DNA from: a virus
Lineage: Duplodnaviria > Heunggongvirae > Uroviricota > Caudoviricetes
Virus record (IMG/VR): IMGVR_UViG_2563366820_000003
Location: 1 to 50,054 of that record
Strand: one strand, 5' to 3'
DNA length: 50,054 bases
Below, one piece after another: positions 20,801 through 26,800 of this stretch; the stretch's first letter is position 1; every line of letters starts with the position of its first letter. Made by a program: the position numbers.

Positions 20801-23800
20801 TTGACCAAGTGGCAAATTTGTCCCCGGATATTGCCGCAGAGCTGTGCGACACAGGCGTCAACATGGGGCCAACCGTGGCGTCAAAAATGTTTCAACGCTG
20901 GCTGAACGTTTTCAACCTGCGCGGGAAACTGTATCCGGATATGGATGCAGACGGACGTATCGGCCCACGAACTATTAATGCGTTACGGGCATATCTGAAA
21001 AATCGTGGCAGGGATGGCGAACGGGTAATGCTGACCGCACTGAACTGTACGCAGGGTGACCGTTACCTGGAGCTGGCAGAGAAACGGGAGGCTAACGAGT
21101 CGTTTGTATATGGCTGGATTAAAGAGCGCGTATCAGGAATCAATTGTTGATATTTATACTTTAGTTGGAAATTACAAAATTAAATAAAAAATTTGCGTAA
21201 TAGCTGAAATTATAATCTCAGGATAAATTATATATGTCTTATGTTTTTGATTAATTCTATTTATTGATTTGCATCAATTATCTTTTTTGCAGATGCGTTA
21301 ATGTCATTGTACATAGTTCAGAGCGCACAATAAGTATCATGAATAGAATTGTTTTTTGGTTTGTCACCTTGGTTTTCATATCTTCTACGTCTTATGCTAA
21401 TGATTTTTATAGAGCAGACTCCAGATCACCAGATGAAGTGAGACGTTCTGGTGGGTTAATACCCCGAGGACAAGATGAAGCGTATGAACGTGGTACACCA
21501 ATCAATATTAATTTATATGATCACGCCCGAGGAACTGTAACAGGGAATACCAGATATAATGATGGTTATGTATCTACAACTACGACATTAAGACAGGCTC
21601 ATTTGATCGGGCAAAATATGCTTGGGAGCTTTAACGAGTATTATATTTATGTCATTGCACCAGCGCCTAATTTATTTGATGTGAACGGCATACTCGGTAC
21701 ATACAGCCCATACCCAAGTGAAAATGAGTATGCAGCATTAGGTGGTGTTCCATTATCACAAATAATTGGATGGTATAGAGTAACTTTTGGTGCGATAGAG
21801 GGGGGGATGCACAGAAACAGAAATTATCGAAGAGATTTATTTCGTGGATTATCTGTTGCACCGAATGAAGATGGGTATCATCTTGCGGGATTCCCTGATG
21901 AATTCCCAGCCTGGAGAGAGTACCCTTGGATAGAGTTTGCGCCAGATCAATGCCATCAAAATAATAAAACTAATAGTTTTTTAACCTGTGATTTTATCAC
22001 TAATGAACTATCGCAAGCTGATTTATTAAAATTTAAGAAGCTCATAAAACGCAAATCCACTTTGTTGACTTTGCAAAGTATTGATGATTTTCTGGTAAAG
22101 AATGGAGATAAAGATGAACTTTAAGGCATTGATTAAAATTTTTGTTTTTATGATAAGTTTGGTATCTATCCAAACATTTGCAGGTGTTAGCCAGGAGTTT
22201 AGAACTAACTGTGGAGGAACCACAGCCAGAATTGTAGAGGGAGTCAAATTGACTCAATATTTTGCTGACGCAAATGTTAATAGGAAAGGTATATATGTTG
22301 TCAGTTCAACTGGCGGTGTTTGGATTATTCCTGGGGCGCAAAACTATCCGGACAATTATGTCGCTGATGAAATGAGGAAAATTGCAATGGCTGCTATACT
22401 TTCAGATATGAAAGTGAATTTATGCGCAAGTGAAGCATATAGTCCGAATCATATATGGGCTATAGAATTAGATGCGGAATAATTAAGTTGTTTTTTGTTT
22501 TATTGCCCCAGAGTGGGGCATTTTTATTTCTATGAGCTTATGAAGTGCTGATTGTGTGAATGTTATTATTGAAGGGGACGAATATAAGCGGATATATAGC
22601 ATTGAAAATATTAATGTTGTAACCACACATCAGCATTATAACAGCTCTTTAGTGAGGGGCTGTTATAATGCCATGGTTCACCAACAGCACCCGCCGCGCA
22701 CCCAGCGCACTGGCTGTTGGCGAGCTTTTTTATTCATCAAGCGAGGCTGTATGAGCGAGAAATTGAAGATCGTCTATCGCCCGTTACAAGAACTGTCTCC
22801 GTATGCACACAATGCCAGGACACACAGCCCTGAGCAGGTGGCACAACTGGTAGAAAGCATTAAGCAATTCGGCTGGACTAATCCGGTACTGATTGATGAA
22901 AAGGGGGAAATTATTGCGGGTCACGGTCGCGTTATGGCGGCTGAAGTGCTCAAAATGGATTCCGTTCCGGTCATTGTTCTGTCTGGTCTGACGGATGACC
23001 AAAAAAAGGCGTATCGCCTGGCAGATAATCGTTTGCCACTGAACGCTGGCTGGGATGAAGAACTGTTACGGATGGAGCTGTCGGAGTTAATCAATGCTGA
23101 TTTTGATGTCTCCCTGACAGGCTTCAGCCCGACAGAAATTGATGAGCTGTTGACGGATGTTTTGCCAGGTACAGGAAATGAGGATGAGCCGTATACGACG
23201 AAAATTGATACGCCTGTTTATGAGCCATCGGGCGGTAAACCGGATATCAGTGAACTGTACGACGATACGAAAACTCAGGAGCTGATCAGCCGGATACGTT
23301 CGGCGTCCCTTGAGCCTGATATCGAAAAATTCCTCCTGTGTGCGGCAGAACGTCACACGGTGTTTAATTTCAGCAGAATTGCGGACTATTACGCTCACGC
23401 TCCCGCTGAAATTCAGTGCCTTTTCGAGGAGTCGGCGCTGGTGATCATTGATTATCAGCAGGCTATTGAAAATGGATTTGTCCGGATGACGCAGCGTATG
23501 GTGGAGATCATGCATGGCGGGGAGGAGGATGAATGTGCGTGATGATTTTTGCGCCTTTATTCTGACTCACGGGCGACCGGACAAAGTTCTGACTTACCGG
23601 ACGTTGCGTCGTGCTGGCTATACCGGGAAAATTTTTATCATTGTCGATGATGAAGACAAGACCCGGCATCAGTACGTAGCTGAATTTGGTGAACAGGTGC
23701 TGGTGTTTTCCAAAGCCGATATCGCCAGTCGTTTTGACGAAGCCGATAATCTCGGTGACCGCCGTTCAATTTTTTACGCCCGTAATGCCTGTTTCGACCT

Positions 23801-26800
23801 GGCAAAAATGGTCGGGTGTAAATACTTCATTCAGCTCGATGATGATTATCACGAGTTCCAGTTTCGGGTGGATCGCAACTATGACCAGGCCTATTTTCCG
23901 ATAAGGAAACTGGATGCGATCCTTTCTGAAATGCTGGCGTATTACGAATCAATACCCGCGCTTTCCATCGCTATGTCGCAGGGCGGGGATTTTCTTGGTG
24001 ACAATGGCGCTCATGCTTCATGGGTGAAACGTAAGGCAATGAACAGCTTTATCTGTTCGGTTGACCGACCGTTCTCATTCATGGGACGCATTAACGAGGA
24101 TGTGAATACGTACACGAATCTCGGTCGCCGTGGAGAATTGTTTATGACGATCGGTGCTGTCCAGTTAGGGCAGAAACAGACGCAGAAAAACAGTGGCGGA
24201 ATGACCGAGCTGTATCTGGATTCCGGAACCTACGTTAAAAGTTTTTACTCCGTCATGTATGCACCGTCATGCGTAAAAATCTCACTGATGGGCGCCAGCC
24301 ATAAACGCATTCACCACCAGGTCACCTGGAACAACGCTGCAGTAAAAATTCTTCACGAAAAATACAGGAAGAAGACACCCTGCATATCAATGGGGGTGAC
24401 AAATGATTCCGTATTCGAAAGTCGAGTCTCTGGCAGCGTGCCGGATGACTGCACAACAAATCGCTGACGTTCTGGATGTTGATCTGAATCGACTGAAAGA
24501 AAATCGGGAAGCAATGACAAATTTTTATGCGTCCATCCGTAAGGGCAGAGCGAAAGGTGAAGCCGAGTTACGGGCGGCATTGTTTAAGCTTGCCAGAAAA
24601 GGGGATGCCTTTGCTCTGCGCGAACTACTCAGGGTGGATAAAAATCAGGACTAACTGATGAGCAGACCGGACTGGGGGGCGTTGCAGCAGGAGTATATTG
24701 CTGAATACACCCGCTCCGGTATATCTCCGGTGGCATGGTGTGAAGCAAGGGGACTGAATTACGCAACAGCCCGTCGTTACATCAAAAAACCTCCGAAAAA
24801 TGCGCAGGCAGAAGTGCGCAAAACTGCGCAAAAAGGTGCGCAAAAGAAAACTGCGCAAAAGCGAACCGGCAAAACGGGGAAGGAAAAATCCAGAGTGGTT
24901 GTTTCTCCCGTTGCAGGAAATGATCAGGAAATTTTATTCAATCCCGATGAATTCGGCATCTCAGAGCAGCAGACGAAATTTGCGATGCTGGTTGCACAGG
25001 GGAGAAAACTCGTTGAGGCATATCGCCTGGCAGGATACGAGTCAGAGGGGAATGCGGCCTACGTAACTGCCAGCCAGCTCCTAAGAAATCCTAAGGTTTA
25101 TCGGGCTATCTCATGGTTCCGCAATCAGTACCAGAAACGCTATACCGCAGACCTGGATTTACTGGTGAGTCAGTTGATGGCCATTGTCCAGGCCGACCCC
25201 AATCAGTTAGCACAATTTCGCCGTGTTAACTGCCGTTATTGCTGGGGCGAGAATCATCTCTACCAGTGGCGCGATATAGCAGAATTTGATAAGGCAGCGG
25301 CGCAGGCTTCCAGAGATGGCAAACCCGAACCGGAATATGGAGGCCTTGGCTTTGTTGATAACGCCATACCCAATCCGGACTGCCCGAAGTGCTGCGGTGA
25401 GGGAACGGGGCAGCTTTATATGGCTGATACCACTCTGCTTGATGGGGATGCACGGCAATTATATGCAGGGGCAAAGCTCGGGAAATTTGGTGTTGAGATC
25501 CTGCTGGAGGATAAGTCTGCCGCCCGGCGCGAACTTATCAAGCTGATAATGGCGACGAAAGGAAGTTCTGCTGGTGGTGCAACTGACAGTCGCAATGATC
25601 TGGAGCTTGAAGGACTGAGGCTTCGCAATGAAAAGCTGCGCACTGAGATTGAAAACCTCAAAAAAGGCGTGGGTGGTGAGAATAACGAAATAATTATCCA
25701 CAACTCTCTGCCGATGCCGGGAGTGGATAATGTCGATTGAAATCTACCTCCCAAAACCTCATGAGGGGCAAATAGCTGCATGGACGGCGGCAATAGAGGA
25801 ACGCTTCCACGCGGTATGCTGTGGTCGTCGCTGGGGTAAAACGGTGATGCTGGTGAATATCGCTACCAGTTTCGCGACGCGGAAATTTGCCGTTCCTACC
25901 ACCGGGCAGCTTATCGCGGGTAGGGTGGGGATTTTTACCGCACAATACCGCCAGTACCAGGAAATCTGGGATGAAATTAGCGCCGTTCTGCAACCGCTGA
26001 TCCTCAGCCAGTCAAAAAATGAAAAGCGCATCATTCTCCGTAATGGGGGGCGCATCGACTTTTGGGTAACGGACAATAACAAACTGGCCGGGCGTGGGCG
26101 TAAGTATCACGCTGTGCTGATTGATGAGGCCGCATTCACTAAATCGCCGGAAATGCTCGAGGAAATCTGGCCCCGCGCTATACGCCCGACGCTTGTCGAT
26201 TACCGTGGCTGTGCCTGGGTATTTTCCACACCAAACGGTATCGACGAGAGCAATTTTTTCTACGCGATATGCCACGATGAATCCCTGGGATTTGTCATGC
26301 ACCATGCGCCAACTTCATCGAATCCGTATATTCCGAAAGAAGAACTGGAGGAAACGGAGAAGAAATCCGATCCGCGCGTATGGCAGCAGGAATATCTTGC
26401 CGAGTTCGTGGACTGGTCCAAAGACGCGTTACTTGATGTCGATAAGCTGCTGGTGGATGGTCAGCCGGTTGACATGCCGCCGCACTGCGACATGATTTTC
26501 GCAGTGATGGATACGGCACTGAAAGGCGGGACCGAAAATGACGGTACAGGCGTGGTGTATTTCGCCTGGGAGTCAACATATTCGGACGAGCCAAAACTGA
26601 CGATTATTGACTGGGATGTGACGCAAATTAAAGCGTCATTGCTTCCTGAGTATATCCCCGGTGTTTATGACAACCTCGAACGCCTGGCGAAATTATGCCG
26701 TCCGCGTCTGGGCAGCCAGGGAATTTTTATGGAAGACGCTGCGATGGGGGCGATCCTCAACCAGAAAGCGGAAACCGAAGGCTGGGATATGACGCCGATT

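Follow-up and report, generated by a model that had tools for sequence, protein, structure and literature searches.

A ParB-like protein and a TAGT-family glycosyltransferase form an obligate gene pair beside viral terminase genes, with DNA as a possible target

This work describes an obligate module of two viral proteins, namely a ParB-like protein and a GT-A glycosyltransferase (GT) of the TAGT family, encoded on the + strand between LT-II toxin genes and terminase genes in a window of 50,054 nucleotides (the whole stretch of viral DNA that was analysed). With a probability of roughly 45%, we propose that the pair is a two-component, late-expressed, ParB-assisted glycosyltransferase system aimed at DNA. 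TAGT- and ParB-type DNA modification is a known kind of system; new here is a GT that has an obligate ParB-like partner with its own C-terminal domain (CTD) and no hydroxymethyl-base source in the loci surveyed.

The LT-II A and B toxin genes (21264-22482; Pfam E 2e-119 and 3e-57) end at the LT-IIB stop at 22482 and are followed by an intrinsic terminator that closes the toxin insert (22504..22530, + strand; stem TGCCCCA/TGGGGCA and a T-run, found by terminator scan). The gene of the ParB/Srx-fold partner (263 aa; 22751..23542, +; Pfam ParB_N; phrog_620, E 2e-89; PGAP name ynaK) starts at ATG 22751 with GAGG 5 nt upstream, its N-terminus being conserved among 26 homologues, and stops at TGA 23540-23542. 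The range given in the sequence-only reading began at 22634, which is the inverted repeat discussed below and not the gene. The GT gene (310 aa; 23535..24467, +; stop 24465-24467; PGAP name 'GREB1-related protein') has its conserved start at GTG 23535, 6 nt downstream of GGAGGAGG (23521-23528); homologues begin MRDDF, and the PGAP annotation of E. coli W agrees on this start. Further in-frame starts are present at 23529 and 23514. The two genes overlap by 8 nt (GTGCGTGA), which supports translational coupling. A small ORF (24445..24654, +; 69 aa from ATG 24445, 83 aa from 24403; phrog_309, E 2.5e-22) overlaps the end of the GT gene, abuts TerS and is similar to part of a small terminase subunit; it is annotated in the same place in relatives and accompanies the pair in enterobacterial loci. 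TerS (24658-25740) and TerL (25730-27058) follow on the + strand (Pfam Terminase_2 and Terminase_6N; phrog_51 and phrog_2). The pair and the terminase genes are tightly packed in one operon, and both the coupling and the leading place in the packaging module suggested by the sequence-only reading were thus borne out.

The pairing holds in both directions. A ParB-like gene lies directly upstream of, and overlaps, the GT gene in 25/25 genome loci found via the GT, which span many bacterial phyla, and a GT gene lies downstream in all 80 viral contigs found via the CTD. The pair is carried by cultured phages of Lactobacillus (c5 and phi jlb1), Vibrio (pv27) and Nocardia and by the haloarchaeal virus HHTV-2, usually just 5' of the terminase genes; in E. 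coli it was counted in 1568 of 5426 complete genomes. Both genes are under purifying selection (dN/dS ~0.1; ~0.12 for the ParB-like gene). GT identity is 42-57% across E. coli, Bacteroides, Lactobacillus and Haloarcula hosts, and conservation over such different hosts speaks for an acceptor common to all of them, such as DNA, and against a surface structure or protein peculiar to one host. Some variant loci have gained a His-phosphatase and cytidylyltransferase-like gene, either inserted or fused, while others carry a TAGT-methyltransferase fusion or a second TAGT. We read these added genes as glycan-pathway enzymes and count them in favour of a DNA glycosyltransferase.

The GT matches the TAGT profile PF20691 over positions 4-205 of 205 (124.5 bits, cut-off 27.5; E 7e-36), and its homologues likewise carry PF20691. 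The GT-A fold was confirmed (the AF2 model is poor in the C-terminal third), the DXD motif is an invariant DDD at residues 102-104 (QLDDDY), and the R...DDD...ED catalytic pattern is present, as in TET/JBP-associated and phage GT-A DNA glycosyltransferases and trypanosome JGT (PMC8256090; 10.1101/2023.12.21.572611). The earlier suggestion of a GT-A-like sugar transferase with a DXD-like motif therefore stands; membership of a structural or packaging family devoid of a transferase fold was looked for and not found. The ParB-coupled GTs differ from the cited TAGTs and phage DNA glycosyltransferases in carrying an additional conserved C-terminal stretch (residues ~221-265) that the Pfam model does not cover, and in always following a ParB-like/CTD gene. 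The enzyme is basic (median pI 8.4-8.8) and its partner acidic (pI 4.5), which fits DNA contact being supplied by the enzyme.

To our knowledge, every characterised DNA glycosyltransferase requires 5hmC, 5hmU or a sugar that one of these bases already bears. Neither the 50-kb window nor the neighbours of 12 distant loci yielded a TET/JBP, a thymidylate-synthase-like hydroxymethylase or a C5-methylase, and none of these is annotated in the complete c5 and phi jlb1 genomes (32-38 kb), so no known acceptor is available. ORF25 of phage c5 has no Pfam match. TAGTs and JGT use 5hmC or 5hmU from a neighbouring MT/5mYOX or ThyS-like enzyme, whereas the ParB-coupled subfamily has no such neighbour (PMC8256090). 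Similarly, the T2/T6 beta-glucosyl-HMC-alpha-glucosyltransferase belongs to the same Pfam family and to the same PHROG as the GT (phrog_842), with TAGT found in T6-like phages (PMC13390438), but T-even enzymes add a second glucose onto glucosyl-hmC from a dedicated hmC pathway, and no such pathway was found here. Pyle et al. hold GTs without a neighbouring base-modification enzyme to be less obviously DNA-directed (10.1101/2023.12.21.572611), which counts against our proposal.

The acceptor could come from elsewhere. A classical TAGT might act on 5hmC, 5hmU or glucosyl-hmC of superinfecting phages, in defence or exclusion, or on a base made by an unrecognised enzyme. The grouping with T-even enzymes in phrog_842, the weak matches to Aeromonas T4-like phages (23-26% identity), the suggestion by Pyle et al. 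that prophage GTs act on invading genomes (10.1101/2023.12.21.572611) and the many 5mYOX-like genes without Pfam annotation noted by O'Toole et al. (PMC13229309) are consistent with this. We nevertheless regard it as very improbable: the pair sits in a late packaging operon behind two terminators rather than in a lysogen-expressed position, it also occurs in the virulent phage c5, directly after cos, and the compact ParB-GT-TerS arrangement leaves a dioxygenase no room, none being found in whole small phage genomes. Alternatively, the GT may need no hydroxymethylated base at all, and would transfer a sugar or other NDP-activated group onto canonical DNA via a ParB-type NTP-gated adaptor, or assemble a glycan on the ParB-like partner. 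This is unlikely, and would represent a previously unrecognised modification chemistry, whether on canonical DNA or on the partner, borne by about a quarter of the complete E. coli genomes and by tailed viruses that infect haloarchaea and many bacterial phyla.

The ParB-like protein consists of an N-terminal ParB/Srx NTP-binding-type domain with a helix-helix segment (aa 1-135; 22751..23155, +), and a linker motif with a helical CTD (aa 146-263; 23186..23539, +). In the AF2 model, residues 1-135 are ordered, residues 136-169 have pLDDT <50 and the CTD is helical and poorly modelled. Both profile match and fold place the N-domain in the ParB/Srx N-terminal domain superfamily (PF02195). Box II reads A-G57-H58-G59-R60, in which R60 is invariant; alignment to 4umk sets GHGR against the GERR of CTPase ParBs, with His in place of the catalytic Glu and Gly in place of the first Arg. 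The nearest relatives of this domain outside the pair are the N-termini of phage DNA methyltransferases (50-57% identity, tblastn). It matches phrog_498 (E 2.4e-51, residues 3-141) and PADLOC MTase_II (E 7e-38), and both matches end at about residue 145; no methyltransferase family (N6/N4 catalytic domain) was detected by Pfam in either protein of the pair. Prophage ParB-N6/N4 DNA methyltransferase fusions thus resemble the ParB-like protein over its N-terminal 140 aa (Kaljevic et al. 2025, PMC12704722) and are found at comparable genome positions in temperate phages. Unlike these fusions, the ParB-like protein has the linker motif and CTD in place of the methyltransferase domain, and catalysis would be provided in trans by the GT.

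A second precedent is formed by the ParB-dependent phage thymine dioxygenases, exemplified by 5mYOX176/ParB176 (O'Toole et al., PNAS 2026, PMC13229309). In phage T-dioxygenase loci, GTs co-occur in 31%, ParBs in 27% and terminases in 19% (PMC13229309). Like the protein described here, ParB176 combines an NBD, a short helical segment, a disordered linker and a CTD, has no DNA-binding domain and is encoded beside a DNA-modifying-type enzyme (PMC13229309). It differs in that the partner enzyme here is the GT itself, no dioxygenase having been found, and in the CTD, which by description is set apart as a distinct, highly conserved family with an invariant linker motif. The DNA-modification role raised by the sequence-only reading among several options is, based on the methyltransferase homology and on this analogy (PMC13229309), the best-supported one.

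In the proposed mechanism, the basic GT-A enzyme would be the catalytic and nucleic-acid-contacting part, whereas the acidic ParB-like protein, which lacks a DNA-binding HTH, would serve as its obligatory activator or adaptor. This role is modelled on the ParB-like activators of phage T-dioxygenases, which act on double-stranded DNA, and on the same N-domain in its fusions to phage DNA methyltransferases. Transcription and translation of the pair would be shared with the terminase genes, so that newly replicated phage DNA would receive a sugar tag just before packaging, most plausibly blunting host nucleases. The very acidic partner without a DNA-binding domain and the Box II without the catalytic Glu of CTPase ParBs count against this mechanism, as do the poor AF2 models of the C-terminal third of the GT and of the CTD.

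The lack of a DNA-binding domain would also suit a GT with another nucleic-acid or small-molecule acceptor, which could be RNA (tRNA with hydroxylated bases, for instance), a nucleotide or a molecule of immune signalling, with the ParB/Srx domain as an NTP-using enzyme that prepares the acceptor or donor. SerK and SbnI, in which ParB/Srx-type NTP use is kinase-like, offer a model. Fusions of the ParB fold to RNA-related domains are known (PMC12704722), and the phosphatase and nucleotidyltransferase gene added in some loci would suit this option as well. We consider it distinctly improbable, since nothing positive was found for any such acceptor and the closest homologues of the N-domain are attached to DNA methyltransferases. 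Moreover, the N-domain can be missing: Vibrio phage pv27, which encodes a CTD-only partner, and loci L024 and L107 keep the CTD and the GT without it, which indicates that the N-domain is not an essential catalytic step.

What these loci do retain is the linker motif, YTxKIxxPxYxP. In alignments of linker and CTD that span many phyla and an archaeal virus, Y, P, Y, F-L, A, R-H, D and G do not vary, and linker motif and CTD together form the invariant unit of the GT's partner. The CTD forms 1187 clusters at 50% identity, is always C-terminal and has no relative in Pfam, NCBIfam or PDB. That the linker motif is invariant between E. coli and a haloarchaeal virus, although its segment is predicted to be disordered, would also suit protein glycosylation, as would its retention where the N-domain is missing. 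In this case the most attractive acceptor would be the partner itself, at Tyr or Thr of the linker motif, in a glycogenin- or GREB1-like manner, with a packaging or host protein as another candidate. Animal GREB1, to which the PGAP name of the E. coli protein refers, shares the TAGT domain and O-GlcNAcylates a protein, the oestrogen receptor (PMC7968844), an activity in the same Pfam family that weighs against DNA as the target; it is a large cytoplasmic protein without ParB partner or phage context (PMC7968844). A self-contained pair of enzyme and acceptor would likewise account for the cross-phylum conservation, and no DNA acceptor is evident in the window or in the neighbourhood of the 12 distant loci. 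We hold this option to be doubtful. Outside the pair, members of the N-domain subfamily occur in fusions with DNA methyltransferases, the GT is basic, virion and host proteins differ wholly between hosts that share 42-57% identical GTs, and the linker motif fits a docking peptide just as well.

The ParB-like gene in the window is the intact, full-length version of ynaK of E. coli K-12, in a Rac-like prophage; in Rac, trkG fills the slot held here by LT-II. The K-12 gene, a Rac remnant, presumably encodes an N-terminal fragment only, without CTD or GT. Its overexpression is reported to affect antibiotic MICs (PMC12924614), which is uninformative on the intact system.

A further option of the sequence-only reading was an accessory for packaging-site recognition or partition, with a perfect 12-bp inverted repeat upstream of the pair serving the ParB-like protein as a parS-type site. 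The repeat is indeed perfect and upstream, but its arms measure 13 nt (GCATTATAACAGC, 22633-22645; GCTGTTATAATGC, 22659-22671; 100% complementary, spacer 13 nt). Perfect inverted repeats of at least 12 nt within 30 nt occur at only two places in the 50-kb window compared to a mean of 0.07 per window in block shuffles, and the repeat is therefore more than chance. An accessory role could also draw on the place beside the terminase genes, which is kept across unrelated terminase types, and on the proposal by Aravind and co-workers, as cited in PMC8256090, that ParB directs a modification apparatus during packaging. We judge it extremely improbable. The features of a canonical partition ParB (ParABS), namely an HTH and full-length profile, an adjacent ParA and a co-travelling parS, are lacking: neither Pfam (HTH_ParB) nor the AF2 model reveals an HTH DNA-binding domain, TIGR00180 (parB_part) reaches 36.8, below its cut-off of 58.45, and aligns with residues 11-94 only, and no ParA-type ATPase was found among the scanned window ORFs or in the neighbour sets of the distant loci. 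Among 43 related loci with the ParB-GT pair, 29 lack the repeat, and Actinobacillus phage pPE4, which has neither gene, carries the repeat and the adjoining terminator directly 5' of TerS; the repeat is thus not parS-like.

The repeat behaves as an RNA hairpin instead. In RNA, the perfect arms of this hairpin, H1 (22633..22671, +), grow to an 18-bp stem including G-U pairs; its right arm includes TGTTATAAT, which is extended -10-like. A second hairpin with a U-tract, H2 (22675..22731, +), is a conserved element resembling an intrinsic terminator and lies ~20 nt 5' of the ParB-like start codon. Together they fold with an MFE of -51.5 kcal/mol (z -5.3). Covariation is seen in H1 (16 pairs, 4 changed on both sides; 98.8% of cells paired) and in H2 (15+4 pairs, 3 changed on both sides), and in relatives the repeat is an imperfect stem with an internal loop. 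The G-U pairs on the sense strand and the compensatory changes point to RNA structure, and the repeat is a stem within a tandem hairpin/terminator element at the junction between lysis and packaging genes, outside the ParB-GT system. H1 is missing from trkG-type relatives, in which H2 is kept in diverged form with covarying stems; the apical part of H2 is near-invariant (GCACCCGCCGCGCACCCAGCGCACTGGC).

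The locus in the window is an unremarkable example of a very common gene pair, in which a ParB-like gene (22751-23542, + strand, 263 aa) is followed by a glycosyltransferase (GT) gene of the TAGT family (PF20691; 23535-24467, + strand, 310 aa). Both ORFs, as proposed in the sequence-only reading, are real. The ParB-like gene starts at ATG 22751, with GAGG 5 nt upstream, rather than at the GTG further upstream with which the mechanical ORF begins, and it ends with TGA at 23540-23542. The N-terminus from this ATG is common to 26 homologues of the protein. The GT gene starts at GTG 23535, 6 nt past GGAGGAGG; homologues have the N-terminus MRDDF and the same start is used by PGAP in E. 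coli W. Given this start and the position of the ParB-like stop codon, the genes overlap by 8 nt (GTGCGTGA). Both are under strong purifying selection (dN/dS of approximately 0.1).

The DNA block of the pair was found in 1568 of 5426 complete E. coli genomes, nearly full length in 864 of these; the annotations call the ParB-like gene ynaK and the GT ‘GREB1-related protein’. A GT profile scan with one genome per species yielded 25 loci in hosts from the Enterobacterales, Bacteroidota, Firmicutes, Chlorobi, Desulfobacterota, Verrucomicrobia, Saccharibacteria and Alphaproteobacteria, and a ParB-like gene lies directly upstream of the GT in all 25, mostly overlapping it. For the reverse test, the helical C-terminal domain (CTD) of the ParB-like protein was used as query. 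At least 572 viral contigs were matched and 80 were retained, each of which carries a TAGT gene downstream of the CTD (78 adjacent or overlapping, two with one inserted gene). The automatic adjacency test passed 76 contigs; in contigs L099 and L113 the overlap exceeds its tolerance, and these were counted among the 78. The pair is also present in cultured phages, namely the Lactobacillus phages c5, LL-Ku, Ld17, phiLdb and phi jlb1 and the Nocardia phage NTR1, and in the haloarchaeal virus HHTV-2 (GT identity 42%). The genes 3' of the pair are terminases of several unrelated types, and in phage c5 the pair forms ORF1 and ORF2, straight after cos.

The invariant core consists of the GT and of the linker motif YTxKIxxPxYxP with the CTD (aa 146-263 of the ParB-like protein). 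A ParB N-domain is joined to them in most cases. The Vibrio phages of 191 kb have a 139-aa partner made up of motif and CTD alone, so the N-domain is dispensable in some lineages. Reduced partners of 127-139 aa were observed in Vibrio phage pv27 (L030, 3459-3878) and in the loci L024 (5607-6011) and L107 (474-854). The motif and CTD form a compact family of approximately 1187 clusters at 50% identity, always in C-terminal position and with no relative in Pfam, NCBIfam or PDB. A PDB sequence search gave no relative for the GT and only weak ParB/Noc N-domain matches for its partner; NCBIfam has no model for the GT, the CTD or the small ORF behind the pair (24445-24654), and PADLOC has no defence-system model for the GT. 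The AF2 models have low confidence in the CTD and the final third of the GT.

The window is a lambdoid, Rac-like E. coli prophage. Its left end encodes an integrase, RecT and RecE/ExoVIII, followed by ydaT-type, replication and Q-like genes and then by holins and a GH108 endolysin. The early region is interrupted by an IS-type transposase with rve integrase core and HTH domains (13911-14999, - strand). After the lysis genes come those for the LT-II enterotoxin A (21264-22124; Pfam E 2e-119) and B subunits (22102-22482; Pfam E 3e-57), and the toxin insert is closed by an intrinsic terminator at 22504-22530 (terminator scan). This layout agrees with the description of full-length Rac-like prophages as carriers of LT-II (Jobling, PMC5917428). 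In relatives the LT-II slot is empty or holds trkG, as in Rac. The slot lies between lysis and packaging genes and spans 21264-22530 in the window and 4438-5913 in L001, a Rac-type locus with trkG.

Downstream, the 69-aa ORF at 24445-24654 overlaps the end of the GT gene, TerS starts 4 nt past its end and TerL overlaps TerS; the ParB-like gene, the GT, the small ORF, TerS and TerL are a single tightly coupled operon. The small ORF accompanies the pair in Enterobacterales. Its match is to the central part of a small-terminase family (phrog_309, E 2.5e-22), and it resembles a DNA-binding module of TerS that is either split off or additional. PGAP gives the portal gene (Phage_portal_3; 27072-28511 in the window, 9453-10889 in the related locus L003) the name ‘anti-CBASS protein Acb1 family protein’ in the relatives from E. 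coli W and TUM9757, which is probably an annotation artefact.

The TAGT family takes its name from its association with TET/JBP dioxygenases. The GT belongs to this family and lacks the namesake feature: a search of the whole window and of neighbouring genes gave no TET/JBP or other 2OG oxygenase, no thymidylate-synthase-like hydroxymethylase and no C5-methylase or other methyltransferase. Likewise, no dioxygenase, hydroxymethylase or C5-methylase was found beside 12 distant pair loci or in the annotation of complete phage genomes of 32-38 kb. The known acceptors of DNA GTs (5hmC, 5hmU and sugars on them) are therefore not supplied. We favour a reading of the pair as a ParB-assisted, late-expressed DNA glycosyltransferase and put the probability of this reading at about 45%.

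DNA is our best guess on five grounds. Outside the pair, the ParB N-domain is closest to the N-terminal parts of phage DNA methyltransferases (50-57% identity; phrog_498, E 2e-51; PADLOC MTase_II, E 7e-38), so this module is covalently joined to proven DNA-modifying enzymes. Secondly, the layout of the partner resembles that of a phage ParB-like protein which O'Toole et al. showed to be required for the action of a T-dioxygenase on dsDNA (PMC13229309). Compared by layout, both have an NBD, a helical segment, a disordered linker and a CTD, and both lack a DNA-binding domain; in the predicted structures of that study the enzyme takes the place of the DNA-binding domain of canonical ParB. Thirdly, the GT is 42-57% identical among hosts that share neither envelope nor proteome, which points to an acceptor that would be universal rather than host-specific. 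Protein glycosylation is the main rival explanation, with the partner's own invariant Tyr/Thr motif as the most attractive target; we regard it as unlikely, and it has in its favour that GREB1, a member of the same Pfam family, glycosylates protein. The fourth argument for DNA is a charge split: the GT has a basic median pI of 8.4-8.8, and its partner is strongly acidic (pI 4.5, net charge of about -26). This split fits a GT that would make contact with the nucleic acid within a composite, ParB-like complex.

The enzymes of variant loci form the fifth argument. In the viral contigs L097 (5326-6321) and L101 (2942-3895), an inserted gene for a protein with His_Phos_1 and cytidylyltransferase-like parts separates the ParB-like gene from the GT; in the contig L093 (4578-6260) the protein is fused to the ParB-like partner (560 aa). 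This suggests donor synthesis, with the protein as candidate maker of the activated donor. In the Hyphomonadaceae locus L027 (3581-6161), a fusion of a TAGT with a class I methyltransferase (564 aa) and then a second TAGT lie behind the ParB-like gene.

The closest systems in terms of working are ParB-dependent phage DNA-modification enzymes and ParB-methyltransferase fusions. Unlike partition ParB, the protein lacks an HTH, a ParA and a site that travels with it, and a partition identity was rejected on these grounds. For this reason, and as TET/JBP is absent, the labels ‘partition protein’ and ‘beta-glucosyl-HMC-alpha-glucosyltransferase’ are misleading; together with ‘GREB1-related’, three such annotations are corrected here. 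K-12 ynaK corresponds to window positions 22751-23011. This remnant, a piece of the ParB N-domain, is reported to raise the MICs of six antibiotics when overexpressed (PMC12924614).

Phage DNA is currently thought to be sugar-modified after replication by methylation or oxidation and then glycosylation. ParB and GT genes are known to co-occur with dioxygenases (PMC8256090, PMC13229309), and the T-dioxygenases most often have GTs, ParBs and terminases as neighbours (O'Toole et al., PMC13229309). Most phage GT contigs have no base-modification neighbour (Pyle et al., preprint 10.1101/2023.12.21.572611); approximately two thirds of the GT-A/GT-B contigs are without such an upstream enzyme and were previously set aside as unclear. 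One large and highly conserved subfamily of TAGTs instead has a fixed ParB-like partner and stands with it at the head of the packaging operon. As a class, the pair would add a further form to the ParB-assisted DNA-modification systems, and it would extend the new principle of ParB-like proteins as activators of DNA-modifying enzymes. Literature searches returned no description of a TET-free, CTD-locked pair of ParB and TAGT; a mention may be present in Iyer et al. 2013, where TAGTs were defined. As the pair occurs in tractable E. coli (e.g., E. coli W) and in cultured Lactobacillus and haloarchaeal viruses, the target of orphan phage GTs is directly testable by simple genetics and nucleoside mass spectrometry. 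Interest would be high if the GT modified canonical DNA or its own partner.

The sequence-only reading was upheld on the folds, the translational coupling and a modification-type role, and failed on the upstream palindrome as a parS-type site. This inverted repeat is indeed perfect, with arms of 13 nt (22633-22645 / 22659-22671) instead of 12. Its hairpin, H1, is present in 14 of 43 related loci with a locatable ParB start and absent from the other 29, which keep a ParB-GT pair of 95-97% identity. Conversely, Actinobacillus phage pPE4, which has related TerS, TerL and portal genes but neither ParB nor GT, carries the repeat and the next hairpin directly upstream of TerS (82% identity over 99 nt). 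The homology block in E. coli genomes starts exactly at the left arm of the repeat (query positions 146-151), and in trkG-type phages and prophages homology starts past it. The left recombination junction is at the left arm of H1 in the LT-II type and between the two hairpins in the trkG type.

Folded as RNA, 22626-22753 forms two hairpins (-51.5 kcal/mol, z -5.3). H1 is the repeat lengthened to 18 bp with G-U pairs, and H2 (22675-22726), with U6 behind it, was scored as a terminator by the terminator scan. Across 10 distinct versions of the element, 97.4% of cells are paired (slid controls 36-48%) and seven pairs have changes on both sides, which was reached in 0 of 500 shuffles. In relatives H1 is imperfect, with a 2x2 internal loop, and the perfect 13-mer of the window is one variant. 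Several hairpin positions carry U-G on the sense strand; neither a DNA palindrome nor a protein operator would need this, and such pairs indicate RNA. The parS reading was rejected on this covariation and the distribution of the repeat. In our reading, the two hairpins make up a structured RNA/terminator element where lysis and packaging genes meet, which would keep non-antiterminated transcripts, e.g., from the toxin insert, out of the packaging operon. An Rfam scan of 22400-22800 gave nothing near any gathering score, and a sigma-70 scan no full promoter at the repeat; the right arm of H1 contains TGTTATAAT (TGCGATAAT in relatives), a candidate extended -10-like element (TGnTATAAT).

The apical part of H2 (22687-22714, GCACCCGCCGCGCACCCAGCGCACTGGC, with the direct repeat GCACCCGCCGC/GCACCCAGCGC) varies less than the covarying stem, and its core is kept even in the loci L080 and L083, where the ParB CTDs are only approximately 66% identical. 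This suggests a function beyond termination, e.g., as a protein or terminase recognition site. Just one other perfect inverted repeat of ≥ 12 nt within 30 nt occurs in the window (0.07 per window in shuffles). It has 16-nt arms and a 5-nt A spacer (48441-48477, AGCTGCTGATGCTGCA / TGCAGCATCAGCAGCT) and lies in an Ala-rich coding stretch of the tail-fibre ORF 48055-49452. The tail-gene region also carries a YafO-like type II toxin ORF (43089-43505; PF13957, E 2e-16).
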